From Chlamydiota bacterium (GTDB lineage Bacteria; Auribacterota; JACPWU01), in assembly GCA_016196885.1 (NCBI GenBank), contig JACPWU010000022.1, positions 1 to 32,000 on the forward strand: a stretch of 32,000 nt of DNA, read 5' to 3'. Positions 1 to 31,848 of the stretch are shown here, in pieces; position 1 is the stretch's first letter; each line of letters starts with the position of its first letter. The notes under the pieces were generated by a model. It was not told the origin of the DNA. It worked only from the letters and a program-made list of their open reading frames with translations, and did not search any database. The translations under genes and the position numbers were made by a program.

Positions 1-3000
1 CAAAAGCCCTCATCACAGGAGATAAGGATTTACTGACGTTAAAAGTCTTTGAAGACATTCCGATACTCACAGCTCGCCAATTCCTCACTTGGCTCGAAAT
101 TCTGTAACTCTTTAACAACACGCCCACCTCTCCCAAAGCAATCAAACCCACCAGCCAGAAAATAAAATGAGGCGCTCCTAGCGCCACTAAAACCCCCGAT
201 ATAAAAAATGCCGCTGCAATCGCACTTTGAGGAGAGACAGAAAAAACAATCAGCGCCAAAAACAATTCAAACCCATAGGGAATTTTGAAAACCCAAATCA
301 TCACAAGCGACAGGGTCAACAAAGCCGCCTCCGTACGGAACGAACCTTCCATCTCAGCCAGCGGCTTGCGTATACGAAATCTTCGTTTTTCGACCGGTCT
401 ACTTCCCTTTGGCAAGCCTCGCATGACGATCGGGCCATCGCCAACCTTTTCTTCAGAAACCCTAGGCGGATGTAGGGAAGTCGCTAAAGCCTGTACAGCC
501 TCACCCGTCCTTTGTTCAATTTCTCGAGTGCTTAAAGAAGGATGTTCTTGCAACCGATCCACCTCTGGAAAAAAGAGGATAAATTTCGTCCCTTCCCCTT
601 CAACAGAATGGACTGACACCTCTCCTCCCATCACATCCACCATCGCCTTCAAGACCGCAAGGCCAACTCCCGTTCCGTCAATACCCTGTGTATTGCTTGC
701 CCGATGCCCCATTTCAAAAATTTTCACCCTATCTGCTTCAGGAATCCCAATTCCCTCATCTTCAACTTCAATCACAACATTCTTATCAACACGCTTCAAC
801 CTCACGAAAACTTTCTTTCCTTTTCTCCGGGATTGAAAACCATAAGAATATTTGATCGCATTTTGAATCAAATCCAACATCGAAGTGATAAAAACATTCT
901 CATCACACTCTGCAACCCACAGGGGCTCATCAGGAATTTCTGCAATCAGTTCTATCTCGGACTCTCTTGCCTCTCTTGCACAACTCTCCACAACCACCTT
1001 CATCAGAGGCTGAATATTTCTCGGCTCATAATGTTCACCGATCCTCATCATTTCAAGATAGGCCTCCAGTTTCGCCAAGGCCCGTTCCATCCCTTCCCTG
1101 AAAAACGCCGCCTCGTTAACACGGACTGGACTTTCACCCTCAAAAGATTCCAACCACTCACCCAAGCGAGGCGCGATCCGTTTTCCGAAATCCTGAACCC
1201 CTCCGTTATGCCACAACCTATAAACCAGCAATCCAAAATCATAATAGGCATGCTCCATTAAATAAGGGAATCCAGCCACGATGGCATTTTGCCCTGAATA
1301 TCCCTTCCAAAAATCGCTTAAATCCTCCCCTCGCACATGGCCTTCCAAAGAACCCTCTTTGCGCTCGGCTTCTGGAGAACGAGCCACAACAATCTCTAAT
1401 ATATCCCGATGAGGAACTCCCTCCAGACTGTATTGAACCTGCACATTTTTTTTCACAAATGAAGCAATCCTGTCTTCCAAGCCAAGTCCCCTGGAAATGG
1501 AAAATCTTAAAAGATCCTCTAATTCGAATCCATACCTCCTGTAATACTTCACAGTCCCCATTCCAAAGGTGTAGGCCATCCAAACTCTGTCTGCACGAAA
1601 TCTTTGAGCTAGATCCGCCAAGAAAAGATCTTCCGCATCTTTTAAGCTTCCCCCACCCAAACCTACCCGGACAGAGAACTGCCTCATCTCATCCTCCATC
1701 CTTTTAAGTTCCTCAGCCATTCGCTTGAGCCTCGCCTTATCCCACTGACCGCTTTCCAAAGAATGCACTAAAAAATCACGCAGCCCTTTTAATTTCTGAT
1801 CATAAAGTTCCGCCTGTTGATGAAGGGCATGCTGGGCCTCTTCAAGCGTGAGCTCGCGTAATGGAGATTTGGACAAACGACGATAGACTTGCAAGAGTGA
1901 CTGATCCGATCTCCAAAAGTCACGCTCCCCCTCCCGACCTGGAAACATCACACGAAACTCCCCTTCCAAACCCAGCTCCCTCCAAATATCAAAAAATCTG
2001 GAATGGCGATACCTCATCACCTCATAAAGATTGAGCCTTTCCTTTCTGTGAACCTTGGCTCTCACCTGCCTTAAACGAGGCGTTTGATTCAGAGGCTGAC
2101 GGACTTGTTCCAAATCTTCTTCTAAACTTCTCCCTACACCTCCCGTCATCACTCGAATCAATCGCAGTAATTCTTGTGGAGACTGATCAAGTCCCCCTTG
2201 GGCTTGGGCCAAAGTTAATTCTTTCTCATAAGTCTCCTGATCCACAAAATACTCTTCAATGTCTTGAACCTTCTTCTCTCCCAACATTTTCTCAGCCACG
2301 GAAACCCGAAGAATCAAACCTACGGTAGGATGGCCATCCACAAAAATAGACATGAACACTCTTTCCTCTGAACGATACGTCTCATGAACTTCGACCTGAT
2401 GCTCCACCCCATTCGAGGACTGAGCCTCTAAAACATTTTTGACCCTGTACTGAATCAGTTCTTGATATTTTGTCAACCACTCCCAGAGCAATTGACCCTG
2501 AGCATTCACCAACGGCCAATCGCGATTCCACTCCACTTGTTGCCACAACTTCAGAACGCCTAAAACACTTAAAATGACTTGCGTCTTCTCACGAAGTGTT
2601 TGAAGAGAGCCCCGGTCCCCCGCCGCTTCAACTCGAGCCGCAGGAGAGGCTGGCACCTGTCCAGAGAGAACCGCGTCAATAGGTTGCGGGCCCGAATTCA
2701 TCGGCTCCACGGCCAATGTGGATTTCTCTTTTTGACCCACTTGCTTAATCATTTTTTCCAAAGGCGTTTGCTCATCTTTCATGATGGAAACATAAGGCGT
2801 CTTCAATTTGAAATGGGTCATGCGAGGCGCTACCACCACATAAGAAAGCCCTTTTTCCTCCAGCCTCTTCGTCAGGCCCTCCGTGTGAAAACCTCCTGCA
2901 TAAAGAATGGCAATGGGACTCTTTTCTTCTTCCATCTTGGCCAGCGTATTTTCTACCAAATCTTTTTCACGGACGTCGGCGTAGCGGTAAAATTGCTCGA

Positions 3001-4660
3001 GATCTTTTAGATGAGAGTCAAGAAAGGCAATGTCGTTATTTGTAACCCCTCCATCTCCCCTCAACGAAGTAGCCCCCTGGGGTAAACTAAGGGGAGAGTT
3101 CTCCGCCATCTTCTGCTTTTCCTCCCCTCTTAAGATAAGAGGGGACCGAGGGGAGTTATCCTGACCCTGGACCCATGACCTTGGACCCTGTATTTTTTTC
3201 AATCCTTCCACAATCTCCTTCGCTGAAACCCCTTTTTTATTCTCCGTAAAATAACGAAGCTCCCCTTTCTTAAGTTCCATCAGAAAAAAATTCTTTAAAA
3301 TCGTAAAATCTTCTTCAATCCTCTTTAAATCTTTTTCCTCTGGAGTCTTCATTATTTCATTTTGGAGAGAATCTCGAAGGGCTTCGCACTCTTTGAGCAA
3401 TTCGTCACTGTTGATTTGATGATAGAGTTCGGTCATTTGAATGTATTGCATCAAATTCGCGTACTTCGAATTCAGTGCATCGGACTTCGTACTTCGTACT
3501 TCGACGTCCGCTGTTCGAAGTTCGATGTCCGATGTACGGTCTTTGAGGTTCGATGTACGATGTACGATGTACGATGTGCTATCTTTTTCAATAAGCTTTT
3601 TTAGATATTCGTAATACTCCCACGCCTCGATCTTCTCGAGTCGGTAATACAAACTCTTGGCCATGAGTTCGACCCCTTCTTCTTTGACGAGTTTGCAGCT
3701 TAAATCTTCTAAAAGTTTGACTCTTTCTTTTTCGACTTGCTTCAGATCTATTCTGTTCTCTAGCTTCTTCATCTGAAGCATCAGATTGATATTGGGGTAG
3801 ATGGAGGAGGAAAGAATGTTGGATGTTGAAAGTTGGATGTTGGAAGATGACGAGGAGTTTTTATCTTTTTCTTTCAACTTTGAACTTTGAACTTTTAACT
3901 GTTCTATATATTCTCCCAACTCCATCTCCCCCTTTTCATAGCGTGTCGCCTGATCCAAAAACTCCTTCACTTCTTTGGAATAAACCTTTTCTCTTAAGTG
4001 AAGAATGACTTTTTCAATCCTGTCCAAAATCGGCAGAGCCTTTTCTTTCACATCCATACCTTGTTTCCATCCCACCACATGCTCAAAATAATGAGCCATA
4101 TTTTCAACGCCTATTAAGGGAAGAGGTTTGTCTTTTACTATGGAGAGATATTCCGCCCCGGAAATTTTTCCTTGTTTCATGAGATAGCCGGCCATCATTT
4201 TTCGAAGGGTCGGATCCGGAAACGCTGTAAAAAAAGAAGTATCCACATCCCCCTGAGCTCCCTCCAAACCAATCATTTTCAAACCATGCGCCCCATGCTC
4301 TTGAAAAAGCTCGTTCATCATCTTGGCTGAATTAGATTGCGCCTCAAAATGGCAATGCACATCCTGAATATGGATGATCATTTTCTGGTCTTGACCCTGA
4401 TGGCTCTGGAGGATGTCACCCCATTTGGAAGGAATAGAAATATTTAAAGGATTGTTGGAGGTTGGATGTTGGATGTTGGATGAAACGACAACCGGTTGAG
4501 CTCTTCCCTCCAACTTCAAACTTCCAGCCTCTATCCCTCTTTCCTGCGCAAGTAGCTCTCCTTCAAATAGATTCGTAAATGAAAATGCCAGAAATGTGAG
4601 GAAAGAAACAAGCCTTAAGCCCAAATTTCTGTTTTTTTCACCCCAATTAAAAAGAGACAT
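1..4660 (-). CDS. Giant multidomain protein truncated at its 3' end by the window edge (>=1553 aa). Signal-like N-terminus, tentative split Tiki/TraB/ChaN-like motifs, long helical middle, then a C-terminal GHKL/HATPase_c domain followed by hydrophobic helices.
   Basis: Manual translation of the minus strand from ATG 4660-4658 gives 1553 codons plus 1 nt with no stop down to position 1. GGGAG lies 12 nt upstream and an in-frame TGA 19 codons upstream. No sub-fragment of this frame appears in the ORF track, consistent with an edge-truncated ORF being omitted. N-terminus is MSLFNWGEKNRNLGLRLVSFLTFLAFSFTNLFEGELLAQE. HATPase boxes near 560-960: LIQNAIKYS (N), DEGIGIP (G1), GTGVGLAV (G2). Hydrophobic helices fall near 100-330. 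Confidence 0.8.
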   Translation of the reverse strand, partial: MSLFNWGEKNRNLGLRLVSFLTFLAFSFTNLFEGELLAQERGIEAGSLKLEGRAQPVVVSSNIQHPTSNNPLNISIPSKWGDILQSHQGQDQKMIIHIQDVHCHFEAQSNSAKMMNELFQEHGAHGLKMIGLEGAQGDVDTSFFTAFPDPTLRKMMAGYLMKQGKISGAEYLSIVKDKPLPLIGVENMAHYFEHVVGWKQGMDVKEKALPILDRIEKVILHLREKVYSKEVKEFLDQATRYEKGEMELGEYIEQLKVQSSKLKEKDKNSSSSSNIQLSTSNILSSSIYPNINLMLQMKKLENRIDLKQVEKERVKLLEDLSCKLVKEEGVELMAKSLYYRLEKIEAWEYYEYLKKLIEKDSTSYIVHRTSNLKDRTSDIELRTADVEVRSTKSDALNSKYANLMQYIQMTELYHQINSDELLKECEALRDSLQNEIMKTPEEKDLKRIEEDFTILKNFFLMELKKGELRYFTENKKGVSAKEIVEGLKKIQGPRSWVQGQDNSPRSPLILRGEEKQKMAENSPLSLPQGATSLRGDGGVTNNDIAFLDSHLKDLEQFYRYADVREKDLVENTLAKMEEEKSPIAILYAGGFHTEGLTKRLEEKGLSYVVVAPRMTHFKLKTPYVSIMKDEQTPLEKMIKQVGQKEKSTLAVEPMNSGPQPIDAVLSGQVPASPAARVEAAGDRGSLQTLREKTQVILSVLGVLKLWQQVEWNRDWPLVNAQGQLLWEWLTKYQELIQYRVKNVLEAQSSNGVEHQVEVHETYRSEERVFMSIFVDGHPTVGLILRVSVAEKMLGEKKVQDIEEYFVDQETYEKELTLAQAQGGLDQSPQELLRLIRVMTGGVGRSLEEDLEQVRQPLNQTPRLRQVRAKVHRKERLNLYEVMRYRHSRFFDIWRELGLEGEFRVMFPGREGERDFWRSDQSLLQVYRRLSKSPLRELTLEEAQHALHQQAELYDQKLKGLRDFLVHSLESGQWDKARLKRMAEELKRMEDEMRQFSVRVGLGGGSLKDAEDLFLADLAQRFRADRVWMAYTFGMGTVKYYRRYGFELEDLLRFSISRGLGLEDRIASFVKKNVQVQYSLEGVPHRDILEIVVARSPEAERKEGSLEGHVRGEDLSDFWKGYSGQNAIVAGFPYLMEHAYYDFGLLVYRLWHNGGVQDFGKRIAPRLGEWLESFEGESPVRVNEAAFFREGMERALAKLEAYLEMMRIGEHYEPRNIQPLMKVVVESCAREARESEIELIAEIPDEPLWVAECDENVFITSMLDLIQNAIKYSYGFQSRRKGKKVFVRLKRVDKNVVIEVEDEGIGIPEADRVKIFEMGHRASNTQGIDGTGVGLAVLKAMVDVMGGEVSVHSVEGEGTKFILFFPEVDRLQEHPSLSTREIEQRTGEAVQALATSLHPPRVSEEKVGDGPIVMRGLPKGSRPVEKRRFRIRKPLAEMEGSFRTEAALLTLSLVMIWVFKIPYGFELFLALIVFSVSPQSAIAAAFFISGVLVALGAPHFIFWLVGLIALGEVGVLLKSYRISSQVRNWRAVSIGMSSKTFNVSKSLSPVMRAF
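3042..3159. repeat. GGGGAG-type element, copy embedded in frame in the giant ORF
   Basis: Carries the same five sequence blocks in the same order as 14817-14912. It is translated as ...SPRSPLILRGEEKQKMAENSPLSLPQGATSLRGDGGVT... Confidence 0.8.
3161..3188. repeat. Heptad array inside the giant ORF
   Basis: CTGACCC TGGACCC ATGACCT TGGACCC. The units are related to the TGGACCA/TGGACTA units at 12867-12887. Confidence 0.8.
3484..3578. repeat. Heptad arrays inside the giant ORF, forming an imperfect inverted pair
   Basis: ACTTCGT x2 plus ACTTCGA (3484-3504), CGATGTC CGATGTA (3523-3536), and CGATGTA x3 plus CGATGTG (3551-3578). Translated as STSYIVHRTSNLKDRTSDIELRTADVEVRSTKS. Confidence 0.85.
3818..3895. 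repeat. Heptad arrays inside the giant ORF
   Basis: GTTGGAT GTTGAAA GTTGGAT GTTGGAA (3818-3845) and CAACTTT GAACTTT GAACTTT (3875-3895). Confidence 0.85.
4454..4481. repeat. Heptad array inside the giant ORF
   Basis: GTTGGAG GTTGGAT GTTGGAT GTTGGAT, the same unit as at 3818-3845. Translated as SSNIQHPTSNN. Confidence 0.85.
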
Positions 4661-4732
4661 TTTGACACACTTCTCCCTATGAGTTGTATAAGTAAGACAC
4701 AGGAAGGTAAAACGAGGTCAAATTAATTAAGA

Positions 4733-4754
4733 AATAAAAATGATCATTTTTATT
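4733..4754. repeat. Perfect 22-bp AT-rich palindrome between the glmS stop and the giant ORF start
   Basis: AATAAAAATGATCATTTTTATT is its own reverse complement. Confidence 0.9.
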
Positions 4755-4782
4755 AAAGAGGAACAACCTGAAAAGATCTAAC

Positions 4783-6621
4783 TTATTCCACCGTCACACT
4801 TTTCGCCAAATTGCGAGGACGGTCAATGTCACAGCCGCGATAGAGGGCCATGTAGTAGGCAAGGAGTTGCAGGGGAATGACATTCAACAGGGGAGAGAGT
4901 TCTTCCAACGTTTCGGGCACCTCAATCACATCATTGACAAATTTTGATACGACTTTGTCATTTGGATTCGCGATCGCTATGATTTTCCCGCGACGGGCTT
5001 CAATCTCTTTAATATTCGAAATCATTTTTTCGTAAACGCCTCCCTGGCTCAAAATCGCAATCACGGGAAAATTTCTATCAATAAGCGCGATCGGGCCATG
5101 CTTCATTTCTCCTGCCGCATAGGCCTCCGCATGGCTGTAAGAAACTTCTTTATTCTTAAGCGCCCCTTCTAGTGCCGTGGGATAATTAAAGCCACGCCCC
5201 AGATAAAACCAATTTCGATAAGAATAATATTTCCGAGCACAAGCCTTAATCGGATCTTGATGATCTAAAACCCATTGAATCTTTTCCGGAATTTTAATCA
5301 GCTCCGTCAAAAGATGGCGGGCCTCCATCAAAGACATCTCGCCTCGGGCCCTCCCCCAAAAAACGCTCAAGAGATAAAAGGCCGACAATTGCGTCAAATA
5401 GGCTTTGGTCGAGGCCACACTGATTTCGGGGCCTGCTTGAGTGTAAATCACGGCATCACTCTCGCGCGTCAGGGTACTGCCCACCACATTCACAATGGAA
5501 ATAATTCGGCAGCCTAGTTCTTTGGCCCTTCGAATGCTGGCCAAGGTGTCTGCCGTTTCTCCGGATTGACTGACCGCAAGCACAGCCGTTCCCGGACTTA
5601 ATTTCAAAGTCCGGTAACGAAACTCACTGGCCAAATCTACTTCCACGGGAATCCCCGTATAACGCTCCAAAATATATTTTCCACATAACCCTGCATAATA
5701 GGCCGTTCCACAGCCGATGATAAACAAACGCTCGATCCCCCGCGCCTCCCTCGAACTCAACATCTCTTGTCCGAAACGAACATCGCTCTTTTTTAAATCC
5801 ATTCTTCCGAGCCACACATTCTTCAAGATCTCGGGCTGCTCATAAATCTCTTTTAACATAAATTTCTCAAAACCACCTCGCTCGGCCTCTTCTAATCGCC
5901 AGGAAACATGCTCAACTTTGGACTTTATTTTTTGCCCCGAAAAATTTTTGACCCCACAGCGATCCGAACGAATCATTGCCCATTGATGATCTTTGAGATA
6001 AATCACCTTGCGGGTTCTTTTTAAAAGAGGTGCCACATCACTCGCAATAAAACATTCTCTCTTTCCTAATCCAATCACCAGGGGACTTCCATTACGAACG
6101 GCATACAAGGTTTGAGGATCTTTTTTAAACATGATACCCAAGGCATAAGTCCCTCTTAATTTCTTGACCAAGCTTTCAAATGCCTTCTCCACAGAGGAGT
6201 TTTCTTTCAAAATCTCCTCAAGGACATGGGCAATCACTTCGGTATCTGTTTGGGAAACGAGACGATGGCCTTTCTCGGAAAGTTCCTCTCTCAATTCCTG
6301 AAAATTCTCAATGATGCCATTGTGAACCACAGCAAGGGTACCCGTACAATCCGTGTGAGGATGGGCATTCAAATCCGAAGGTTGTCCATGCGTCGCCCAG
6401 CGGGTGTGGCCGAGCCCCATTTTAGAGCGAAGATGAAGAGCACTGAGCGCTTTCTCCAATTCGGCCAATTTTCCAATTTTCTTAATGACATGCAAATTCC
6501 CTTTTCCATTGAGCACACTGATTCCGGAAGAATCATAGCCCCGATATTCCAGACGGGCTAGCCCCTCTAACAGAATAGGAACCGCATTTTGCTTACCCAC
6601 ATAACCGATAATGCCGCACAT
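4783..6621 (-). CDS. glmS: Glutamine--fructose-6-phosphate aminotransferase (isomerizing)
   Basis: 612 aa. N-terminal MCGIIGY with catalytic Cys2, two SIS-domain regions, and the canonical C-terminus ...LAKSVTVE. Confidence 0.97.
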   Translation of the reverse strand: MCGIIGYVGKQNAVPILLEGLARLEYRGYDSSGISVLNGKGNLHVIKKIGKLAELEKALSALHLRSKMGLGHTRWATHGQPSDLNAHPHTDCTGTLAVVHNGIIENFQELREELSEKGHRLVSQTDTEVIAHVLEEILKENSSVEKAFESLVKKLRGTYALGIMFKKDPQTLYAVRNGSPLVIGLGKRECFIASDVAPLLKRTRKVIYLKDHQWAMIRSDRCGVKNFSGQKIKSKVEHVSWRLEEAERGGFEKFMLKEIYEQPEILKNVWLGRMDLKKSDVRFGQEMLSSREARGIERLFIIGCGTAYYAGLCGKYILERYTGIPVEVDLASEFRYRTLKLSPGTAVLAVSQSGETADTLASIRRAKELGCRIISIVNVVGSTLTRESDAVIYTQAGPEISVASTKAYLTQLSAFYLLSVFWGRARGEMSLMEARHLLTELIKIPEKIQWVLDHQDPIKACARKYYSYRNWFYLGRGFNYPTALEGALKNKEVSYSHAEAYAAGEMKHGPIALIDRNFPVIAILSQGGVYEKMISNIKEIEARRGKIIAIANPNDKVVSKFVNDVIEVPETLEELSPLLNVIPLQLLAYYMALYRGCDIDRPRNLAKSVTVE

Positions 6622-6624
6622 AAC

Positions 6625-6680
6625 TCGTTGCTCGTTGCTCGTTGTTCGTCGTTCGTCGCTCGTATCTCGTTATTCGTCAA
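6625..6680. repeat. Heptad array (8 units) abutting the glmS start codon
   Basis: CTCGTTG x3, TTCGTCG x2, CTCGTAT, CTCGTTA, TTCGTCA, all in constant 7-nt phase. The array ends 3 nt from ATG 6621. Confidence 0.9.
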
Positions 6681-6697
6681 TAATGAATTCATTAATT

Positions 6698-6831
6698 TCA
6701 ATGATCATTCGAGATCATCGTGTGCGATGAAAGTTCTTCCCATCATGCTTTTTTTGTAGTCGCCCGATTCATCGGGCAGCCCATGCAAGGGGCACACGGC
6801 AGCCCCATAAATGGGGCGACTACAAAATGAG
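6698..6831. repeat. REP-like composite element, copy 1 (left module, GTAG...CTAC core with a 23-nt insertion, AAAATGAG flank)
   Basis: The core at 6756-6823 reads GTAGTCGCCCGATTCATCGGGCAGCC[CATGCAAGGGGCACACGGCAGCC]CCATAAATGGGGCGACTAC. The left module 6698-6755 is near-identical to 11580-11637. Confidence 0.85.
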
Positions 6832-6861
6832 CCCGACTTTCATAGCAATAATTTGCCTTTT

Positions 6862-6903
6862 CGACGAAAGGCGAACAACGAAAAACTAACGACGATATAC
6901 GAT
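6862..6903. repeat. Complementary-type heptad array (6 units) overlapping the nagA stop
   Basis: CGACGAA AGGCGAA CAACGAA AAACTAA CGACGAT ATACGAT. It is inverted relative to 6625-6680, so the two arrays bracket REP-like copy 1. It also encodes the last nagA residues (..IVYRR). Confidence 0.75.
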
Positions 6904-11565: not shown

Positions 11566-11579
11566 TCTCTTGGCTAATC

Positions 11580-11690
11580 TCAATGATCTTTCGAGATCAT
11601 CGTATGCGATGAAAGTTCTCCCCATCATGCTTTTTTCGTAGTCGCCCCATTTATGGGGCTGCCCGATGAATCGGGCGACTACAAAATGAG
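11580..11690. repeat. REP-like composite element, copy 2 (same flanks as copy 1, core in the opposite orientation)
   Basis: The core at 11638-11682 reads GTAGTCGCCCCATTTATGGGGCTGCCCGATGAATCGGGCGACTAC. This is the exact reverse complement of the 22547-22591 core. Confidence 0.85.
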
Positions 11691-12822: not shown

Positions 12823-12824
12823 AA

Positions 12825-12887
12825 GTCCATAGTCCATGGTCCATAGTCGACAGTCCACAGTTTTAATGGACCATGGACTATGGACTG
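12825..12887. repeat. Heptad-array hairpin between der and the dGTPase-like gene
   Basis: GTCCATA GTCCATG GTCCATA GTCGACA GTCCACA, then the loop GTTTTAA, then TGGACCA TGGACTA TGGACTG. The der stop codon lies inside the right arm. Confidence 0.9.
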
Positions 12888-14200
12888 CTTCTTTTTCGCT
12901 TCCCGCTTTGATAAACAAATTTAATAGGCGATCCCTCAAACCCAAAAAGCTTTCTAAATTCACGCTCCAAAAAGAACCGATAGGACTCCTTCACGAAACT
13001 GGCTTGATTCACATGAATATGAAACTCCGGAGGATGACTTGCCGCCTGCAAAATTCGATCAAATCGAGGCATGTGCCCTTCTTCACTGGGCGGCTGGCGA
13101 ATGGCGAGAAAATTTTCTAGAAATGTTTCCAATTCCTCATCTGAAATTTTCCTCCTTCCACTTTCATCCACTTGAACAATCTTTTCAATTAGATTGTCTA
13201 TCTGAAAACCTGTGAGGGCGGAGCAAAAAAGAATGGGATAAATATCTAAAAATTTCCATCTCTCTCGTAAAGCCTTCGTGTATTCACTTTTTTGAACCTT
13301 CTTCACCAAATCCCATTTATTGAGAACCAAAACACAGGCCTTATAACGTTTTCGAATCTCATTCAAGATGCGAATGTCTTGAGCCGTCACGCCCTCAGCC
13401 CCATCGGTCATCAACACAGTTAAATCTGCCCTTCGAATGCTCTTCAGGGAACGCATCACGCTAAAAGTTTCGGGCCCCATTTTGACTTGATTTCTTCGCC
13501 TCATTCCTGCGGTATCCACAAAAGTGAAAAGATGATTCTTAATTTTAATAGAAACATCAATGGAATCGCGGGTTGTACCGGGAACGGAATCTACAATCAA
13601 GCGCTGCTTTCCTAAAAGGAAATTGATCAGCGTGGATTTTCCCACGTTGGGTTTCCCGACCACCGCTACTTTAAGAGAAGATATTTCCTCTTCTTCAATT
13701 TTTCCCAAATGTTTTGTCACTTCATCTAGAAGTTCGGCAATGCCGACCCCATGGATGGAAGAAATCATAAATACAGATTTAAAACCAAAGCTATAAAATT
13801 CTTGTGTGTTTTCTTCCATATTAGGATGATCGACTTTGTTCACCACGAGAATCATTTTCTTCCCAGAACGGCGAATCCAAGCTGCAACCTCATCATCCAA
13901 GGGCGTCACTCCATTCTTTGCATCCACAATCAAAAGAACAAGAGCCGCCTCTTCCAAAGCCATTTTGACCTGCTCGTGCACTTGACGGTGAATAGAATCC
14001 TTCTGACTCTCATCCACTCCTCCCGTGTCTACCAGGCGAAGAGAAATTCCATTCCAGGTGAGACGAGCCTCCACGCGATCCCGCGTAATCCCAGGCTCCT
14101 CATGAACAATGGAAATACGCCGACCGATCAGACGATTAAAAAGAGTGGATTTTCCAACATTGGGACGGCCGATGATGGCAACGATGTTTTTCGAGTTCAC
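12878..14200 (-). CDS. der: Ribosome-associated GTPase Der (EngA)
   Basis: 440 aa with two tandem G domains (GRPNVGKSTLFN and GKPNVGKSTLIN), a KH-like C-terminus and a GTG start. There is a 4-nt overlap with pgsA. Confidence 0.95.
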   Translation of the reverse strand: MNSKNIVAIIGRPNVGKSTLFNRLIGRRISIVHEEPGITRDRVEARLTWNGISLRLVDTGGVDESQKDSIHRQVHEQVKMALEEAALVLLIVDAKNGVTPLDDEVAAWIRRSGKKMILVVNKVDHPNMEENTQEFYSFGFKSVFMISSIHGVGIAELLDEVTKHLGKIEEEEISSLKVAVVGKPNVGKSTLINFLLGKQRLIVDSVPGTTRDSIDVSIKIKNHLFTFVDTAGMRRRNQVKMGPETFSVMRSLKSIRRADLTVLMTDGAEGVTAQDIRILNEIRKRYKACVLVLNKWDLVKKVQKSEYTKALRERWKFLDIYPILFCSALTGFQIDNLIEKIVQVDESGRRKISDEELETFLENFLAIRQPPSEEGHMPRFDRILQAASHPPEFHIHVNQASFVKESYRFFLEREFRKLFGFEGSPIKFVYQSGKRKRSSP

Positions 14201-14799
14201 AGAGAGAGCACCTTACCGCTTCCATTCAATTGTCTGCTTCCATAAATAAGATAACCGATCCAAGAGGCAAAGGTAGCTATGGCCGCAATCCATATTGGAA
14301 CATCCGCATGAGGCCACTTCAATAAAATCCAGAAAACGGTGACCATTTGAGAAAAAGTCGTGACCTTACCCAAAACGCTTGGAACGATTTTCACACTTCC
14401 ATTTAAAATATGAATCAACAAAGCTCCTAACGTAATAAACACATCTCGAGAAATGACAAGCACGACAAACCAAAACGGCAAGCGATTCTGCAAGGCATGA
14501 TTGGGAAGTGCCAAAAGAATGATGGCCGACGTTAAAAGTAATTTATCCGCCAGAGGATCCAGAAAAGTTCCCAAGCGTGTTTGCTGGTGTCGCGTACGCG
14601 CGATAAAACCATCTAACGCATCCGTCAAAATGGCAATTCCAAAAGAGAGCATGGCCCCAATTCTAAGCCACTCGCTCTTGAACGCATCCGACTCTAAATA
14701 GCCCAAAAGCAAAACGACAAACAGAGGAACGAGAAAAATACGCCCCAAGGTAATACGATTGGCTAAGTTTAATGTAGATTTCTTGAGTTCTGCTTCCAT
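14197..14799 (-). CDS. pgsA: CDP-diacylglycerol--glycerol-3-phosphate 3-phosphatidyltransferase (CDP-alcohol phosphatidyltransferase family)
   Basis: Carries the CDP-alcohol motif DALDGFIARTRHQQTRLGTFLDPLADKL and multiple TM helices. The track start 14829 lies inside the GGGGAG-type repeat, so ATG 14799 (MEAELKKS...) is more likely. Confidence 0.85.
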   Translation of the reverse strand: MEAELKKSTLNLANRITLGRIFLVPLFVVLLLGYLESDAFKSEWLRIGAMLSFGIAILTDALDGFIARTRHQQTRLGTFLDPLADKLLLTSAIILLALPNHALQNRLPFWFVVLVISRDVFITLGALLIHILNGSVKIVPSVLGKVTTFSQMVTVFWILLKWPHADVPIWIAAIATFASWIGYLIYGSRQLNGSGKVLSL

Positions 14800-14816
14800 C
14801 GTCACAGTGATACCCC

Positions 14817-14912
14817 GTAACCCCTCCATCTCCCCTTAAATTAAGGGGAGAGCAAAACCCCTCTCATAGTGAGAGCTCCCCTCTTATTTCTAAGAGGGGT
14901 TGGGGGAGTTAT
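14817..14912. repeat. GGGGAG-type multi-hairpin element, intergenic copy between gltX and pgsA
   Basis: Three hairpins: CTCCCCT/AGGGGAG, CTCTCA/TGAGAG and CCCCTCTTA/TAAGAGGGG. It shares the blocks GTAACCCCTCCATCTCCCCT, TAAGGGGAGAG, CTCCCCTCTTA, TAAGAGGGG and GGGGAGTTAT with 3042-3159. Confidence 0.85.
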
Positions 14913-14924
14913 TAAATTTTTTAT

Positions 14925-16217
14925 CTACCGATCAAGCATGTCTTCCAACCTTTTTAAAACTCTCTCCCTCCCCAAAAGGCTCATCATCTGAAAAATCCCT
15001 GGGCTCACTTGCTTCCCTGTCAAAGCCACCCGGACCGGATGAATCAAATCACCCGCCTTCACCCCGAGACGCGTGGCCAAATTTCGAATGCAAGGCTCCA
15101 AGGCAGCTTCATTAAAACCGCCCAGCCCTTTTAACTCTTCTAATAGAATTTTCAATCGCTCTCTGGACTCTGGCGTTGAAAGATATTTTTGAACCGCCTG
15201 AGGGTCTGGTTCAATGGAATCCTGAAAAAAATAACAAGCCTCCCTTGGGAAATCAGCCAGCGTCTTGATGCGCTCTTTAAAAAGAGCCACGAGGGGTTCC
15301 AAACTTTCTTCCGAGGGCACCTTTCCAAATTGGGCCTGAACAAAAGGCACTAAATCCTTTTTCAAACGTTGAGAATCCGCTTGACGAATGTATTGCCCAT
15401 TCATCCATGTCAATTTTTCCACATCAAAGATAGCACTCTTGCGATTCACCCGATCTAAAGAAAAAAGACGGATCAAATCTTCACGACTCATTAATTCTAA
15501 ATCCCCTCCCGGAGACCAGCCCAAAAGCGCCAAGAAATTCATCAGGGCCTCCGGCAAAAATCCAGCCTCGCAATATTGAAGGAGAGCCGTCGCCCCGTGC
15601 CGCTTACTCAAGCGCTCGCCATCCGAACCCAAAATCATGGGAACATGTGCAAAATGAGGCCGCTTAAAACCCAAAGCCTCATACAAAGCCAATTGCTTGG
15701 GCGTATTTGAAAGATGATCATCCCCTCGAATCACATGCGTGACATTCAAAGTTGCATCATCCACAACGCAGGCAAAATTATAAGTCGGCGTCCCATCCGA
15801 TTTCAAAATGACCAACTCATTCAAAAGACTGTTGTCAAATTCTAATTTGCCATAAACCAAATCATCGAGTTCGACTTTTTCCGGAGGAATTTGAAAAACA
15901 ACAGCACCCTCCTTTTCGAAAGCCATGTCCTTTTTCACCAAATCCTGCGCCAGCGAACGATAAAGATCAAATCGGCTAGACTGATAAATGGGCCCCTCGT
16001 CCCAATCGAGGCCGAACCACTTTAGGCTCTCTAAAATTTCATCCCGGAATCGATCTTCAGAACGAACCGGGTCCGTATCTTCAATTCTAAGCTGAAAAAT
16101 CCCGCCCGCATGCCTCGCAAAAAGCCAATTAAAAAGGGCCGTGCGGGCCCCTCCAATATGGAGGAATCCCGTCGGACTGGGCGCAAAACGAACACGCACT
16201 TTTTCTGAAGCTGTCAT
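14925..16217 (-). CDS. gltX: Glutamate--tRNA ligase
   Basis: RFAPSPTGFLHIGGARTALFNW (HIGH motif) and RLSKRHG (KMSKS-type motif). The true start is probably MTASEKVRVRF at 16217 rather than the track start 16280. Confidence 0.92.
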   Translation of the reverse strand: MTASEKVRVRFAPSPTGFLHIGGARTALFNWLFARHAGGIFQLRIEDTDPVRSEDRFRDEILESLKWFGLDWDEGPIYQSSRFDLYRSLAQDLVKKDMAFEKEGAVVFQIPPEKVELDDLVYGKLEFDNSLLNELVILKSDGTPTYNFACVVDDATLNVTHVIRGDDHLSNTPKQLALYEALGFKRPHFAHVPMILGSDGERLSKRHGATALLQYCEAGFLPEALMNFLALLGWSPGGDLELMSREDLIRLFSLDRVNRKSAIFDVEKLTWMNGQYIRQADSQRLKKDLVPFVQAQFGKVPSEESLEPLVALFKERIKTLADFPREACYFFQDSIEPDPQAVQKYLSTPESRERLKILLEELKGLGGFNEAALEPCIRNLATRLGVKAGDLIHPVRVALTGKQVSPGIFQMMSLLGRERVLKRLEDMLDR

Positions 16218-16326
16218 AAGGTATTGATGATAAAGGAAGTGAGGAAATTTTGCACATGGAAAAAAATAATCGCAGGTCATTGATCTTGAAAAGGGTGCGG
16301 CGTTCAGTCGTCTTCAATTTAATGTC

Positions 16327-18713: not shown

Positions 18714-18852
18714 CTTTAGGGAGTATAGTCAATATTTTTGCTCCATCCTAAAAAACGCAAACTTCTCGGGTCAGGTCTTGTAATCGCACATAAGCCATTT
18801 ACGATTTATATTTACAACTACCTCCATTGAAATGAATTATAGAATATTTTAC

Positions 18853-18880
18853 TCACGACTCACCCCTCACGACGCACGAC
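18853..18880. repeat. Heptad array abutting the IOR stop codon
   Basis: CTCACGA CTCACCC CTCACGA CGCACGA. Confidence 0.8.
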
Positions 18881-21800
18881 TATTTTCCACTGTTGATTTT
18901 GACACCCTCTATGGAAGCAGAAGAAGGTGTCAATCTCTTTGAATGGGGAGATGAAGTCCCCAAAAGCTCACTCACTTTGAGTTTGGCCTCATCCATTTTG
19001 GGATAGCGCACTTGGCGATAGCCTCGGACCTCTTCAGGGGTTTGAAGGGCCTGAACATAGAGACGATAGGAGGCTTCTTCCTGAAAATCAAAATTGTCTA
19101 CCAAGTCAGAATACCATTGTCGAAAATCTTTTTCTGCCTTGTGCCATTGGGGAAGGATCTTTCTCAAAAATTTCAAATGTTTCATAATATTGAGCTGCCA
19201 ATTCTGGGTCACAATGTCAAATTCGATATTCCAGGGGCCTATTTTAAATTGTGGCCGATTGATGTGGCGATAAATCAACCGATCTCCTGCATGATGGATG
19301 TTGTAGCGTTCCTCATCCCTCCTCTTCTTTTCCACACTCGTCAGTAAATGGGCCACATAAACTTCGTCCTTGATTAACATCACCTTGGCCAAATTAAAAA
19401 GCGCTGCCTTTGTGGCTTGGTATTGCAGTTCCAACCGGTCTTTGTGATAGACAGAAAGAACTTTTTCTACATAATTTTTCGCATAAGCTACGTTTTCATA
19501 TTGAATGAGATCGTAAACACGAAGGGCAAAATGACGCAAGGTCTCATCGTCTAAAACCAATTGTGTCAAGGCTCCCTGAACGATCTCCCGATAAACCTTG
19601 GAGCGGTAACTTCCCTGCCAACCCCGACCTAGAATTTTTTCTTTCTCTTCAAAAAGAGCTTGAAAACCTTTGGGCTGATTTTGCTTCTCAAAAAATTCTC
19701 TCGAAAGAACCATGCGCCGACCTACATTAAAAGCCAAAATATTTCTCTTCAAATCGCTGTGAATGGTATCTTGAATCGCCCCCAAAATACTTTCCAGACT
19801 CAAAGGGAGTAACCCCTTTTGAAAGGCCGCACCCAGCATCACCAAATTGACGTAGAGCTTAGATCCCAAGTATTTTTCTGAAACGTCCGAGAAATCAAAA
19901 CCGTCATAATAATCCTTGCGCGTGTATTTCTTCAGCAACCCTTCTAATTCGTCAAGTGAAAAATGGTCCAGGCCCATGAGACTTCGAATGGTGGGCGTTT
20001 TGTATAAATTAACAAAGGCCACGGTCCGGTCCGGACTTCCCATGCGTAAATGCATTCGAGAATCCAAGGCCCGAACGGCCTCCAAGGCGTCTAATCCCCA
20101 GAGCAAATCGGCCTTTCCATTGGGAATCACTTGAGAAACAGGCAAAGGTCCCTTGAGAAAACTGATTTCGGAATAGACCCCTCCGTTGCGAATCGCTAAA
20201 CCCTTCTTGTCGCAGAAAAGGACGTGATAACCTTCCTTCATCCCGGCATGAACCAAGATAGAAGTGAGAACCCCAATTCCCATTCCTCCCACGCCCGCAA
20301 CATAAGTGTGCCACTGGTCCTTGATTTTCCAATAGACGGGTGAAGAAAAATGATCCAGATCCAATTTTTTCAAACGATCTTCCGGTTTCCCCGATCGCTT
20401 CACAATCACCTTTTCAAAAGAGGGGCAGACCTTGACCTTGGTGCAAGCGGTATCTGCCACACAAGTGGAAAGATCCGTCACAATTTTGGGACCGTAATCC
20501 GTCTCCTCCACCGTGAGTCCGGGACATCCTGTAGATTTCGTACACTCCAAACAATATTCGCAAACTTGAGGTGTGATATTGACAAATTCTTCCCTAGGCA
20601 AATACCCCTTCTCCCGAATGGTCCGACCCTTCTCTCGACGAACCCGGCGGTGATAGGTAATACCGCATTCTTTATCCGCAATTAGAACCTTGACACCGTC
20701 CTGTAAAATGGTCTCTTCCAAAATGTCCCGATACTGCGTCCGATAAGCCGGATTAACCCGCATCACTGGAATGGTGCCATCATGCGTCATCCCCTTCAAA
20801 ACATGCTCGATGTCCTGGGCAAAGGTAGGACGGCCTAAAATATCGGTATCAGACTCAGGCGTGGGCTGATGACCCGTCATGGCCGTGGTTTTATTATCCA
20901 AAATAATGTAGGTGATATCTTGATGATTCTTGACCGAATCAGAAATGGCCGCCATACCGCTGTGAAAAAAGGTGGAGTCTCCCATGAACACCACTTGCTT
21001 ATTCACAATAAAAGGATCAATGCCTGCCCCTGTTCCCCCGCCCAGACCCATGCCAGAATAATTGTGCATCAATTCTTGATTGGGCTCGAACATCAACATG
21101 GTATAACAGCCGGTATCCCCATGAAAAAGCAAGTCCACGGGATTTGTTTCATGACGAGCTTTCATGTATTTGGGATCCCGAAAATCTTTCTTAATTTCGA
21201 TCAGCACACTAGAAGAATCGCGGTGGGGACATCCCGGACAAAAAGTCGGCGTGCGAAGAGGTATTTCAGCAGAAAAATTTCCTACCGCTTCAATCAAGGC
21301 CAATTCACTTTTGATCCTTGCCTTATTCATTCCCTCAACAGGAAATCGCAAAAAGAGCGGGCCCAAATGTTCTATCAAAATAGAGGGATTGAGCCCACGT
21401 GTGGCTGGAATGCCAGAAAGTCCTTCCGGAAAAGATTTTCCCCAGATTTTCGGTGAAATCCAATTGGAATGCCTTTGAGAAGCATCCTTCAAAAGAGAAG
21501 TGATTTGCTCTTCAATAAATCCTCTCTTCTCTTCAATCACAATAATGTTTTTCACCTGATTGGCAAAATCCAAAACCAATTCTGGATCCAGAGGATACGT
21601 AATCCCTAATTTTAAAATGGGAAAATGCGCCTGAAGCCCCATTTCCAAAAGCGCATGTTCCAAATAGCTGTACGCGAGACCCGAACTGACGAATCCAAAA
21701 TCGCTCAGGCCTTGAGCAGGATAATGAATGACATTCACCCTTTTTTCGCGACATAAACGATGAAGCTCTCTAAAGCGCCCCTCTAAATCTTCTTCTCGAC

Positions 21801-22470: not shown

Positions 22471-22546
22471 TTTTTACTCGTCGTTAGCCCGCATTTCATC
22501 TGAAAATAGTCTTTAGTTATTCTTATACAATAAGTTATGATGACTT

Positions 22547-22591
22547 GTAGTCGCCCGATTCATCGGGCAGCCCCATAAATGGGGCGACTAC
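22547..22591. repeat. REP-like core, copy 3 (core only)
   Basis: GTAGTCGCCCGATTCATCGGGCAGCCCCATAAATGGGGCGACTAC. The outer 9-10 bp stem encloses two 5-bp hairpins. Confidence 0.85.
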
Positions 22592-22697
22592 AAGGGTGAT
22601 TTTCATCCCCCTTTGTGACTGAAAGGATCCCCGATAAAAACACTCGGGGATGACAAGCTGTAGGCATTTTGAGCTCGTGATGAGAAATGCGGTTTAG

Positions 22698-22721
22698 TCG
22701 CTCGTCATTCGTATTTCGTAC
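22698..22721. repeat. Heptad array in the nadK-IOR intergenic region
   Basis: TCGCTCG TCATTCG TATTTCG TAC. It shares the CGTATTTCGTA motif with 28719-28729 and, in variant form, with the reverse complement of 26148-26166. Confidence 0.7.
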
Positions 22722-23699: not shown

Positions 23700-24182
23700 A
23701 TGGACCCCATTTTAGAAATTTTAGAGAAAGACGCTCGGCTCAAGCCAGAAGAAATCGCCAAAATGGTCAAAAGAAATGTAGTCGAGATTAAAAAACTCAT
23801 CCAAAAATATGAGAAGGAACGGGTGATTTTACGCTACAAAACCGTTCTGAATAAAGAGCTTTTAAGAAATTCCAGCGAGGTGAGGGCCTTGATCGAAGTC
23901 AAGGTCACCCCCCAAAGAGACGTTGGCTTTGATGCCATTGCCACGCGTATTTATCAATTTCCGGAGGTGAGAAGCTGCTACCTCATGTCCGGCGGCTACG
24001 ATCTTCTCGTCACAGTCGAAGGGAAAGACCTTCAATCGGTAGCCTCCTTTGTTTCTGAAAAATTGTCCACCCTGGAGAATGTGCATGGAACGGTCACCCA
24101 TTTTCTCTTAAAAAAATACAAAGAGGACGGAGACATTCTGCGCTCACGGGAAGAAGATAAACGGATTGCCATTTCATTTTAG
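23700..24182 (+). CDS. Lrp/AsnC-family transcriptional regulator
   Basis: 160 aa with an N-terminal wHTH (ILEILEKDARLKPEEIAKMV) and a C-terminal RAM/AsnC_trans_reg-like domain. AAGGA lies upstream of the ATG. Confidence 0.87.
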   Translation: MDPILEILEKDARLKPEEIAKMVKRNVVEIKKLIQKYEKERVILRYKTVLNKELLRNSSEVRALIEVKVTPQRDVGFDAIATRIYQFPEVRSCYLMSGGYDLLVTVEGKDLQSVASFVSEKLSTLENVHGTVTHFLLKKYKEDGDILRSREEDKRIAISF

Positions 24183-24260
24183 CGTACAGCGTACAGCGTA
24201 TAGCGTTTAGCGTACAGGAAAAACAAAACTTCTTTTTGCTGTACGCTATCTGCTAAACGC
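24181..24260. repeat. Heptad-array hairpin between the Lrp-family gene and the aminotransferase gene
   Basis: AGCGTAC x2, AGCGTAT, AGCGTTT, AGCGTAC (24181-24215), a loop, then GCTGTAC GCTATCT GCTAAAC (24238-24258). The arms pair as 8 bp plus 9 bp with a bulge. Confidence 0.88.
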
Positions 24261-25440: not shown

Positions 25441-26103
25441 GATGCCAGATGATGCTTCATAACTCCCCCCACCCCTCAAAACAAACTTCACAGGAACTTC
25501 CAGAACCCTTGATAAACCTCGTGAAAATTTCCATTCCTGAATCGTATGAAGAGCAGACGCATCCAATATTTCACGCCCAGAAGATTGAGAAACTGAAACA
25601 CTCGAAACTTGACCCTCTTCATTCACGGCCACCTTCAACAAAACCTCTCCCTCCCATCCCTTTAAAAGAGCCATTCGCGGATAAGGAGGGACCGGATTTC
25701 CAGAAATGCCACTATCTGTGTCAGGAACCCCCAGGGTTTGAGAAGAAGGAATATTCAAAGAGGAAGTGGCGGCGGGTTGAGACGAACTCCTGTTTGTGTC
25801 ATCCCGAGGAACATCGCAACGAGGGATCCTTTTCCTAGAATTAAAAGGCAAGATTTCTCCTCCGATTTCGATCGGGGTCGAAATGACAGCGGAATCCACC
25901 TTGTTTGAATCTGCTGTCACTTTCTTTTCAATATTCTTCTCAACCCCCTCCCTCCCCACACTTACAATCTCAACCTCAACGCTTCCCATCCCTCTTTGGA
26001 CAGAAAATGGCTTCTCCCCAAAATCATGTAGGAATAGCCCCCACGCTGTCAAACCTAGACCCGCATGCAGAAAGGTTGAAAGGGCTAAAAAGAATGGTTT
26101 CAT
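25411..26103 (-). CDS. tonB: Energy transducer TonB
   Basis: N-terminal TM anchor MKPFFLALSTFLHAGLGLTAWGLFL and the C-terminal TonB domain PPYPRMALLKGWEGEVLLKVAVNEEGQV...IQEWKF. The track start 26139 translates the heptad array (MTNDRQRTTVLK), so ATG 26103 is preferred. Confidence 0.82.
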   Translation of the reverse strand: MKPFFLALSTFLHAGLGLTAWGLFLHDFGEKPFSVQRGMGSVEVEIVSVGREGVEKNIEKKVTADSNKVDSAVISTPIEIGGEILPFNSRKRIPRCDVPRDDTNRSSSQPAATSSLNIPSSQTLGVPDTDSGISGNPVPPYPRMALLKGWEGEVLLKVAVNEEGQVSSVSVSQSSGREILDASALHTIQEWKFSRGLSRVLEVPVKFVLRGGGSYEASSGILTLNKSSHS

Positions 26104-26112
26104 CTTTAAAAC

Positions 26113-26189
26113 CGTCGTTCGTTGTCTGTCGTTCGTCATCCGTCAGTCGTTTCAACGAAATACGAGTAACGAACGACGGACGACGGCAT
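26113..26189. repeat. Phase-locked 11-unit heptad hairpin between the TBDR stop and the tonB start
   Basis: CGTCGTT CGTTGTC TGTCGTT CGTCATC CGTCAGT CGTTTCA | ACGAAAT ACGAGTA ACGAACG ACGGACG ACGGCAT. The 7-nt register holds through the inversion centre. The array abuts the TBDR stop (26190). Confidence 0.9.
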
Positions 26190-28685: not shown

Positions 28686-28690
28686 TTTTT

Positions 28691-28732
28691 CGTCGTTCGT
28701 TGTTCGTCGTTGGTCGTTCGTATTTCGTAGAT
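28691..28732. repeat. Heptad array (6 units) in the 5' leader just upstream of the CobS-like ATG
   Basis: CGTCGTT CGTTGTT CGTCGTT GGTCGTT CGTATTT CGTAGAT. The array is separated from ATG 28685 by A5 on the coding strand. Confidence 0.9.
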
Positions 28733-28931: not shown

Positions 28932-29104
28932 CACCCAGGTCTTCTGGCTCCCCAGCCCTTTTGACTGCCTTCCCAATCCAACCCAATGTCAGACCAGTGG
29001 CTCCTTCTTCGTCAAAAGGTTCCTTTCTCTTTCGAGAAAGGACTAGGTTACAGCGGCGGGGCCGCTCCGGATTCTAACCGGATTCCCTTAGAGTAAACGC
29101 GACC
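28932..29104 (-). promoter_or_regulatory. Cobalamin (B12) riboswitch aptamer
   Basis: Minus-strand sequence contains CUCUAAGGGAAUCCGGUUAGAAUCCGGAGCGGCCCCGCCGCUGUAACC, GAGCCACUGG, GGGAAGGCAGUCA and GCCAGAAGACCUGGGUG (B12 box). These blocks align with the E. coli btuB leader as I recall it. Confidence 0.9.
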
Positions 29105-31741: not shown

Positions 31742-31799
31742 ATCTATTGATTATATCACGATCTTTTATCTAAGAGCCTATCCCCTCACTCTCGAGTGT

Positions 31800-31848
31800 A
31801 ATGCTTGTCAAACATAATGCTTGACAAACATCATGTTTATGAAGCATT
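31800..31848. promoter_or_regulatory. Three copies of a 16-bp operator-like motif (two direct, one inverted) in the divergent intergenic region
   Basis: AATGCTTGTCAAACAT (31800-31815) and AATGCTTGACAAACAT (31816-31831) are direct repeats. ATGTTTATGAAGCATT (31833-31848) is the reverse complement AATGCTTCATAAACAT, matching 13/16. Confidence 0.5.

Follow-up and report, generated by a model that had tools for sequence, protein, structure and literature searches.

The 32,000-nt window analysed here comprises positions 1 to 32,000 of contig JACPWU010000022.1, from a metagenome-assembled genome (MAG) labelled Chlamydiota bacterium (GCA_016196885.1). At its left end lies a giant coding sequence on the minus strand, which runs from an ATG at 4660 to position 2 with at least 1553 codons free of stops, the 3' part of the gene being missing because the source contig stops at the window start. 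The Prokaryotic Genome Annotation Pipeline (PGAP) annotates this open reading frame (ORF) as a single partial coding sequence. Inside the frame stand segments of two small structured repeat classes, both of which also occur between genes, namely (i) arrays of 7-nt units, hereafter heptad arrays, at four sites, and (ii) a multi-hairpin element, hereafter the GGGGAG element, next to the fourth of these sites. The domain order of the encoded protein and the coordinates of all features are collected in Table 1.

Heptad arrays and the GGGGAG element inside the giant gene

Heptad arrays were detected with Tandem Repeats Finder and with a scan for self-matches at lag 7, using local shuffles as the null. 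The lag-7 scan reveals 14 period-7 arrays in the window, where 200 shuffles give 0.6 on average and never exceed 3; other periods (lags 4-6 and 8-11, stricter thresholds) give no arrays in the window. Non-coding DNA, 2.9 kb in all, accounts for seven of the arrays and the four sites of the 4.66-kb giant gene for six, the remaining 24 kb of coding sequence containing one marginal two-unit array. The resulting density is about 40 times that of the homologue loci of other genomes, which amount to 1.22 Mb. Within the giant gene, the two methods place arrays at 3162-3188, 3460-3577, 3814-3846, 3871-3900, and 4453-4482. These in-gene arrays are short and degenerate (69-92% matches), with 3-4 consecutive units free of mismatches at 3551-3577 and 4461-4482, and sites 1 and 2 are 84% identical over 37 nt, flanks included. 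The predicted RNA fold differs from site to site: the inverted pair of site 3 reaches -36.9 kcal/mol (z -4.17; none of 200 shuffles equally stable), site 2 forms a weak hairpin (z -1.95), and folding of site 1 gave no hairpin. At three of the four sites the arrays are stop-free in all three frames of the coding strand; most intergenic copies carry stops.

The GGGGAG element adjoins the array of site 4, the two together covering 3042-3188, that is 147 nt or 49 codons. An intergenic copy is flanked by gltX (14925-16280) and pgsA (14197-14829), both identified by Pfam, and shares with the in-frame copy five exact blocks that comprise (i) 20 nt, GTAACCCCTCCATCTCCCCT, at 3042 and 14817; (ii) 11 nt, TAAGGGGAGAG, at 3088 and 14842; (iii) 11 nt, CTCCCCTCTTA, at 3122 and 14876; (iv) 9 nt, TAAGAGGGG, at 3136 and 14891; and (v) 10 nt, GGGGAGTTAT, at 3150 and 14903. 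The blocks follow the same order in both copies, and the longest common substring, 20 nt, compares with at most 13 nt in shuffles. The intergenic copy is closed by imperfect terminal inverted repeats, GTAACCCCTCC and GGGGGAGTTAT, and is predicted to fold at -48.6 kcal/mol (z -3.73). Two stems persist in the in-frame copy, whose z versus shuffles is 0.49. The first hairpin module measures 42 nt in the giant gene versus 21 nt in the intergenic copy. All three minus-strand frames of the intergenic copy contain stops, and the in-frame copy is open in the frame of the gene only. Modules of 21 nt, of the forms CTCCCCT-N7-AGGGGAG and CCCCTCT-N7-AGAGGGG, number 10 in the approximately 52 kb of the MAG sampled here (GCA_016178005.1), versus 2 in 1.22 Mb of other genomes.

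An earlier note, made from the letters of this window, had described the five ordered blocks and the four in-gene heptad sites, and both descriptions prove accurate, the blocks to the nucleotide and the sites by the two detection methods. The four peptides it quoted are all present in the conceptual translation, which crosses every insert without a stop along the 1553 open codons. Its statement that all inserts fall between two half-motifs of the N-terminal domain, HIQDVH and GGFH, is incorrect, with site 1 (4454-4482) located N-terminal to HIQDVH.

Two MAG assemblies (GCA_016178005.1, contig JACOUD010000083.1, and its twin) give the identical sequence, the encoded proteins being identical over 1549 aa, and the stretch 3822-6737 recurs without change in the independent Logan contig L089 (SRR12113387). 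That contig ends within the array at 3816-3846 and within a 90-nt repeat described below; the break in the array may reflect repeat-induced branching or population variants.

Insert positions relative to homologues and paralogues

The N-terminal 641 residues of the giant protein belong to a large family, with 345 loci in GTDB genomes and 7770 matches in a representative library. The GTDB loci are found chiefly in Omnitrophota, Auribacterota, and Elusimicrobia; many family members are giant proteins, and several copies per genome are usual. A fold search of the PDB with this domain returned nothing significant, with ChaN (2g5g) ranked 30th, and Pfam PF04187 matches one distant relative only; the label 'ChaN/Tiki-like' is a lead only. 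Protein searches with the middle region (aa 642-1240; window 941-2737) and with the peptide of the GGGGAG element gave no homologues and no matches, respectively, both negatives being weak because the index failed to return the query's own protein.

Eighty translated homologues from other genomes were aligned, and segment lengths were measured between fixed anchor residues. Site 2 occupies 43 aa in the window protein versus a homologue median of 24 aa (range 19-26; +19), the 19 extra codons lying at about 3836-3892. Site 3 occupies 51 aa versus 19 aa (range 15-46; +32), and the segment of sites 4/5 occupies 75 aa versus 35 aa (range 26-74; +40). The two control segments, aa 405-470 and aa 100-200, measure 66 aa versus 66 aa (range 66-66) and 101 aa versus 98 aa (range 98-101). 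Homologue occupancy is near zero at aa 257-275, at aa 365-395, and over most of aa 489-545; at site 1 it is 0-0.2, in a linker of variable length before HIQDVH. Conserved family motifs stand on both sides of every insert. By alignment, the three internal sites (2, 3, and 4/5) are insertions relative to the 80 homologues.

The AlphaFold model of the N-terminal domain, built from an alignment of 8 sequences, has a mean predicted local distance difference test score (pLDDT) of 71.7, and scores below 50 are confined to aa 30-71 (site 1), 270-280 (site 2), 363-390 (site 3), and 496-536 (GGGGAG element), together with the chain ends at aa 1-7 and 616-641. The low-scoring insert segments have confident helices on either side; in the model, the inserts coincide with flexible loops, which is the outcome of the structure prediction that the earlier note had suggested.

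The closest relatives of the giant protein are P0001 (360 aa, 63% identical) and P0009 (3244 aa, 58% identical), which are paralogues and not orthologues because they belong to the same MAG; the possibility that P0001 is an orthologue from a sister species was rejected, its accession numbers placing it in that MAG. P0001 is nearly peptide-identical to the giant gene at sites 1 and 2, with SSNLQHLTSNS at site 1. P0009 is devoid of the site-2 insertion, with 24 residues as in the outgroups, and P0010 also lacks the 19 extra residues. In the linker of site 1 P0009 displays an AGCGTAY-type array, and in the loop of site 3 a GTCGTGA-type array, both with units unlike those of the giant gene. Its site-1 array (L091:10120-10145) is identical at 24 of 26 nt to the intergenic sequence 24192-24217, and its site-3 array (L091:11034-11062) at 25 of 29 nt to 18852-18880. 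The two matches score 21 and 19, higher than any shuffle, the null maxima being 13.5 and 14.5. P0009 also contains the GGGGAG element (L091:11384-11532) with a GGTCC-type array (L091:11354-11383) at the same codon position as in the giant gene, the element including an extra stretch of about 54 nt with one further hairpin module. Where the giant gene and P0009 encode the same residue, the codons are identical in 26 of 35 cases (74%) within the element and in 135 of 294 (46%) outside it (Fisher p=0.002).

An unrelated gene of 9014 aa in the same MAG (contig JACOUD010000054.1) carries two separate in-frame modules of the element. Three genes thus far carry the element in frame, read each time as R-G-D-G-G-V, and the RGD tripeptide is encoded by the first module wherever that module lies in frame. 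Intergenic nucleotide homology, absence from homologues, and occurrence in frame in three genes make a strong sequence-level case for the GGGGAG element as an insertion. The presence or absence of the segments, which the earlier note had proposed to score among orthologues, was scored against the 80 homologues, relative to which the segments are extra, and among three paralogues, among which they vary; these paralogues come from one MAG, and the comparison is not one of orthologues. The nucleotide copies elsewhere in the genome to which that note had pointed are present in the sampled 52 kb, both between genes and inside another gene.

Table 1. Coordinates of the giant gene, its motifs and inserts, and related repeats; positions are those of the window unless given as residues (aa) or with the prefix L091
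Feature	Position	Strand	Details
Giant coding sequence	2..4660	-	N-terminal membrane anchor; ~640-aa domain; orphan middle; HATPase_c; hydrophobic tail
HIQDVH motif, ~640-aa N-terminal domain of giant protein	4355-4372	-	
GGFH motif, ~640-aa N-terminal domain of giant protein	2885-2896	-	
HATPase_c domain of giant protein	aa 1261-1366		
Site 1, single-arm array	4454..4482	-	Unit ACATCCA (coding strand); peptide SSNIQHPTSNN; linker from membrane anchor to first strand
Site 2, arrays 3816-3846 and 3871-3900	3816..3900	-	Units TCCAACA (coding strand) and GTTCAAA; 24-nt spacer
Site 3, inverted CGTAC-core array pair	3476..3578	-	Long imperfect hairpin; peptide IVHRTSNLKDRTSDIELRTADVEVRSTKSDA
Site 4, GGTCC/GGTCA-core array adjoining GGGGAG element	3161..3188	-	Peptide GPRSWVQGQ
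In-frame GGGGAG/CCCCTC element	3042..3159	-	118 nt; peptide NSPRSPLILRGEEKQKMAENSPLSLPQGATSLRGDGGVT
Intergenic GGGGAG copy, between gltX stop (14925) and pgsA	14817..14912	.	Three hairpins
Intergenic TCGTnnn array reaching glmS ATG	6624-6678		Inverted partner of 6862-6895, 79% complementary
Heptad array over stop codon of nagA-like gene	6862-6895		
AGTCCAT inverted pair	12824-12886		Perfect 21-nt stem; provides last two codons and stop of der; z -7.83
Heptad array at ior gene stop, TCGTGAG/GGGTGAG (minus strand)	18851-18881		25/29 nt identical to P0009 in-frame site-3 array
Intergenic TCGT-type array, ior to nadK gap	22694-22720		
AGCGTAC inverted pair, lrp to aminotransferase gene gap	24181-24260		24/26 nt identical to P0009 in-frame site-1 array; z -5.23
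GTCGTTC-type inverted pair, TonB-dependent receptor gene to tonB gap	26112-26186		z -3.59
TTCGTnn array directly before ATG of 206-aa gene	28689-28729		3' of cobalamin riboswitch
Element module 1, 9014-aa gene	L091:5380-5425		Peptide NPPLGVRGDGGVS (also written PPLGVRGDGGVS); exact 20-mer AAGGGGAGATGGAGGGGTTA within
Element module 2, 9014-aa gene	L091:6325-6365		Peptide VTPPAPLTPRGG

Repeats outside the giant gene

The intergenic heptad arrays are mostly inverted pairs with matching units that form long hairpins, the three folded pairs being listed with their z scores in Table 1. They stand exactly at gene boundaries, overlapping the stops of der, of a nagA-like gene, of an ior gene, and of lrp, and abutting the ATG start codons of glmS and a 206-aa gene. 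Many preserve a constant core, TCGT or CGTAC, every 7 nt, with variable positions between. A terminator role was considered and rejected: T tails are missing from the heptad hairpins, prediction of intrinsic terminators does not pick them out, and sites resembling terminators show no enrichment. Rfam contains no family for either the heptad arrays or the GGGGAG element.

The arrays at 6622-6678 and 28686-28729 (ACGAnnn on the mRNA strand) occupy the last 40-55 nt before the ATGs of glmS and of the 206-aa gene, respectively, and no obvious Shine-Dalgarno sequence is seen in either. A putative operon comprising the 206-aa gene, a TonB-dependent receptor gene, and tonB follows the second of these, the array standing between the ATG of the operon and a cobalamin riboswitch (28937-29088, minus strand). 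The longest ORFs of an HD-domain gene and of tonB begin inside or upstream of arrays (12824-12963 and 26107-26139); PGAP starts the HD-domain gene downstream of the array, giving 376 aa versus 423 aa, and for tonB an ATG at about 26104-26106, right after the hairpin, looks the likelier start. Sporadic constant-core arrays (TAGnnnn, ATAGGnn, CAGTTGT, ACGGTnn), mostly between genes, occur in five loci of Omnitrophota and related MAGs (L010, L017, L018, L055, and L063), the one of L055 being directly 3' of the homologous gene.

The 20-mer of the GGGGAG element occurs at four distinct metagenome loci, in other organisms without heptad arrays. These loci mostly display the first hairpin alone, and the ends of the element are not definable from them. 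At one of them (L082:1918-1977; metagenome contig Ga0209642_10000688), from another organism, the 20-mer and its hairpin lie between two adjacent ORFs, the upstream ORF terminating within the element and the second presumably encoding an ABC-transporter ATPase. A viral link of the element was rejected, the 20-mer being absent from viral contigs. In the window, a 22-nt fragment at 25456-25477 (minus strand), in the C-terminal tail of TonB past TonB_C, matches the 3' end of the element at 20 of 22 positions and encodes LRGGGSY; it may be derived from the element, a match of this size being borderline by chance.

A third repeat family consists of a double hairpin, GTAGTCGCCC...GGGCGACTAC, seen between genes only, at 6747-6832, 11629-11690, 22544-22594, and L091:9441-9500; identical stretches shared by its copies reach 47 nt. 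A 90-nt repeat (6693-6782 versus 11575-11664, 90% identical) encloses this double hairpin. Finally, a 16-nt direct repeat, TAATGCTTGACAAACA, present in 2.3 copies at 31799-31835 upstream of an ArsP-type permease gene and including TTGACA, looks like an operator.

Origin of the in-frame segments

The reading that we consider likely is that the segments are repeat-derived insertions in frame, comparable to Rickettsia palindromic elements (RPEs) and formed by other repeat classes, which are tolerated in the flexible loops of giant paralogous proteins. The likeness to RPEs, with a different repeat class, had been proposed in the earlier note and gains support from the homologue lengths, the loops of the model, and the copies elsewhere in the MAG. 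According to this proposal, the MAG would be dense with two small structured repeat classes: (i) heptad arrays, of 7-nt units with a conserved core of 4-5 nt, usually arranged as inverted pairs that form long hairpins exactly at gene ends; and (ii) the GGGGAG element, a modular palindromic element with 21-nt hairpin modules between imperfect terminal inverted repeats. In permissive loops of giant membrane-anchored paralogues, in-frame copies of both classes would have reached fixation, and they would be read through as disordered low-complexity linkers. Only inserts with a length divisible by 3 nt and without stops on the coding strand would have survived. The stop-free in-frame arrays, the element open in one frame, and the stops in most intergenic copies fit such a survival filter acting on insertions. 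Read through, a heptad array would pass through all three frames in turn and yield peptide periods of 7 residues.

The GGGGAG insertion would be older than the duplication that gave rise to the giant gene and P0009, with later remodelling of the element producing the 42-nt first module in the former and the extra stretch of about 54 nt in the latter. Gain or replacement of the heptad arrays, on the other hand, would have happened separately in different paralogues, at the same loops. For the spread, copy-and-paste dispersal or recombination between repeats is favoured, together with local slippage that would set array length, and the inserts are presumably nearly neutral. Dispersal of the arrays is proposed because the in-frame arrays of P0009 match distant intergenic arrays.

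Several observations weigh against this reading. The identification, in the earlier note, of the in-gene segments with types found between genes holds for the blocks of the element and for the period of the arrays; the giant gene's own arrays give no significant sequence match to intergenic arrays over the approximately 52 kb of the MAG (shuffle null). For these arrays insertion is indistinguishable from local expansion, which is a live alternative, and their dispersal would be argued solely by analogy with the paralogue, whose status as such depends on MAG binning. Translation across the inserts is presumed from the intact frame only. As to mobility, the element ends GTAACCCCTCC and ATAACTCCCCC agree at 8 of 11 positions, neither of the two full copies of the element shows an evident target-site duplication, and no transposase was found in the window, including REP-associated tyrosine transposases (RAYT; IS200/IS605-like). 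Copies of the element that lie in frame outnumber the intergenic ones over the 52 kb sampled, and 'intergenic repeat' may be wrong as the default description of this class. Moreover, the excess synonymous identity in the element suggests nucleotide-level constraint or gene conversion, not pure neutrality.

The alternatives differ in which part of these data they explain. It is unlikely that the giant gene's arrays were made locally, by chance duplication of 7 nt followed by replication slippage, leaving the GGGGAG element as the only true insertion. The unit sequences do differ between sites, comparison of the giant gene's arrays with the rest of the window gives scores no higher than those of shuffles, and heptanucleotides have been reported as the commonest long simple repeats of bacteria, with polymerase slippage invoked (Mrazek et al. 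2007, as represented in PMC4679880). Slippage alone, however, does not give inverted array pairs with matching units, nor does it sit well with the identities of 24/26 and 25/29 nt between P0009 arrays and distant intergenic arrays, or with the similarity of sites 1 and 2, which extends into their flanks. Another proposal treats the arrays as contingency loci, in which gain or loss of one 7-nt unit would shift the frame and switch a giant surface protein, as in neuO; this is very improbable. A unit length not divisible by 3, the location of site 1 right after the membrane anchor, the perfect tracts of 3-4 units, the several paralogues of the family, and the Logan contig that ends inside the array at 3816-3846, which could represent a population variant, are compatible with it. 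Nevertheless, the arrays are short and degenerate, no copy-number difference is seen between the two MAGs or over 3822-6737 in the Logan contig, sites 3 and 2 form a hairpin and a weak hairpin, and such arrays abound between genes, where frame is irrelevant.

It is quite improbable that the hairpins are kept for a role of the nucleic acid, with the peptides as a by-product; such a role might lie in the processing or stability of the mRNA, in pauses of the ribosome between domains, or in recognition of a 7-nt lattice by a binding protein. The synonymous identity within the element, a site-3 hairpin as stable as the intergenic ones, and the constant core of 4-5 nt with variable positions, found in other phyla too, would be expected in that case, yet the in-frame element is no more structured than shuffles, site 1 is unstructured and site 2 weakly structured, gene conversion between repeat copies could account for the excess identity too, and the heptad hairpins, devoid of T tails, are not detected as intrinsic terminators. 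An assembly artefact, either a misassembled chimeric ORF or a decaying pseudogene, is scarcely credible: the sequence comes from MAGs, assemblies break at repeats, and P0001 is truncated at 360 aa, but the 1553 open codons, the same sequence in two MAG assemblies and a Logan contig, the conserved family motifs on either side of every insert, and a paralogue with the element at the same codon position all argue against it. A bolder proposal, which we regard as distinctly doubtful, is that the heptad hairpins form an undescribed class of propagating element, the lattice of 4-5-nt cores being bound by a dedicated multimeric protein or a RAYT-like enzyme; the class would be recruited recurrently, with the RGD-encoding GGGGAG modules, into the same loops of giant envelope proteins for linker or adhesion diversification and possibly frame-switching.

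STRR sequences of cyanobacteria are heptanucleotide tandem repeats. Heptanucleotide repeats are described directly upstream of start codons in Beggiatoaceae (TAACTGA) and in cyanobacteria (PMC4679880), and the arrays of the window resemble these, and the long simple repeats of Mrazek 2007, in having at least three tandem 7-nt units above chance, mainly between genes and often right before start codons, translatable in three frames where stop-free. They differ in the many units involved (ACATCCA, GTTCAAA, CGTAC-core, TCGTnnn, AGTCCAT, AGCGTAC), none of which is TAACTGA, in the predominance of inverted hairpin pairs, in the several in-frame copies within one gene family, and in the lineage, labelled Chlamydiota with homologues mostly from Omnitrophota. 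Similarly, repetitive extragenic palindromic (REP) sequences and REPINs (PMC3116915) are short inverted hairpin doublets at gene ends, present in many copies, some near-identical at distant positions; here the arms are tandem heptads instead of one conserved REP, and REPINs are typically extragenic. In neuO (PMC13001214), 7-nt units near the 5' end of the ORF are likewise translated into 7-residue peptide repeats, from a tract that is long, perfect, and variable in length, whereas the present arrays are short, degenerate, and identical across assemblies.

The closest parallel is provided by the RPEs (Ogata et al. 2000, 2002, reviewed in PMC10969869), which are characterised as dispersed palindromic repeats of about 100-150 nt located between genes and in frame in unrelated genes, with a constant peptide reading (R-G-D-G-G-V in the GGGGAG element), absence from homologues, and compatibility with the host fold. 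The comparison is one of behaviour and not of family membership: the host is not an alphaproteobacterium and no sequence relation is expected, the GGGGAG element is modular, with hairpin units of 21 nt subject to lengthening or duplication, and its hosts so far are giant multi-domain proteins, not housekeeping enzymes, seen in 52 kb of one MAG. In the papers searched there is no account of inverted hairpin-forming array pairs, of such unit diversity, or of arrays captured time and again in the same protein loops. In-frame repeat insertion is known from Rickettsia, and the two repeat types described here matched nothing in Rfam or in those papers.

At a practical level, such repeat segments disrupt the assembly of MAGs and lead homology searches and the calling of start codons astray, the ORF lists for this window placing two starts inside arrays. 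For the biology of the family, the giant gene and its paralogues would represent a second, independent case of small structured repeats absorbed into proteins, in an uncultured lineage and with two repeat classes side by side, and the colonisation of the same loops by different arrays would bear on the birth of disordered linkers and low-complexity regions in bacterial giant proteins.

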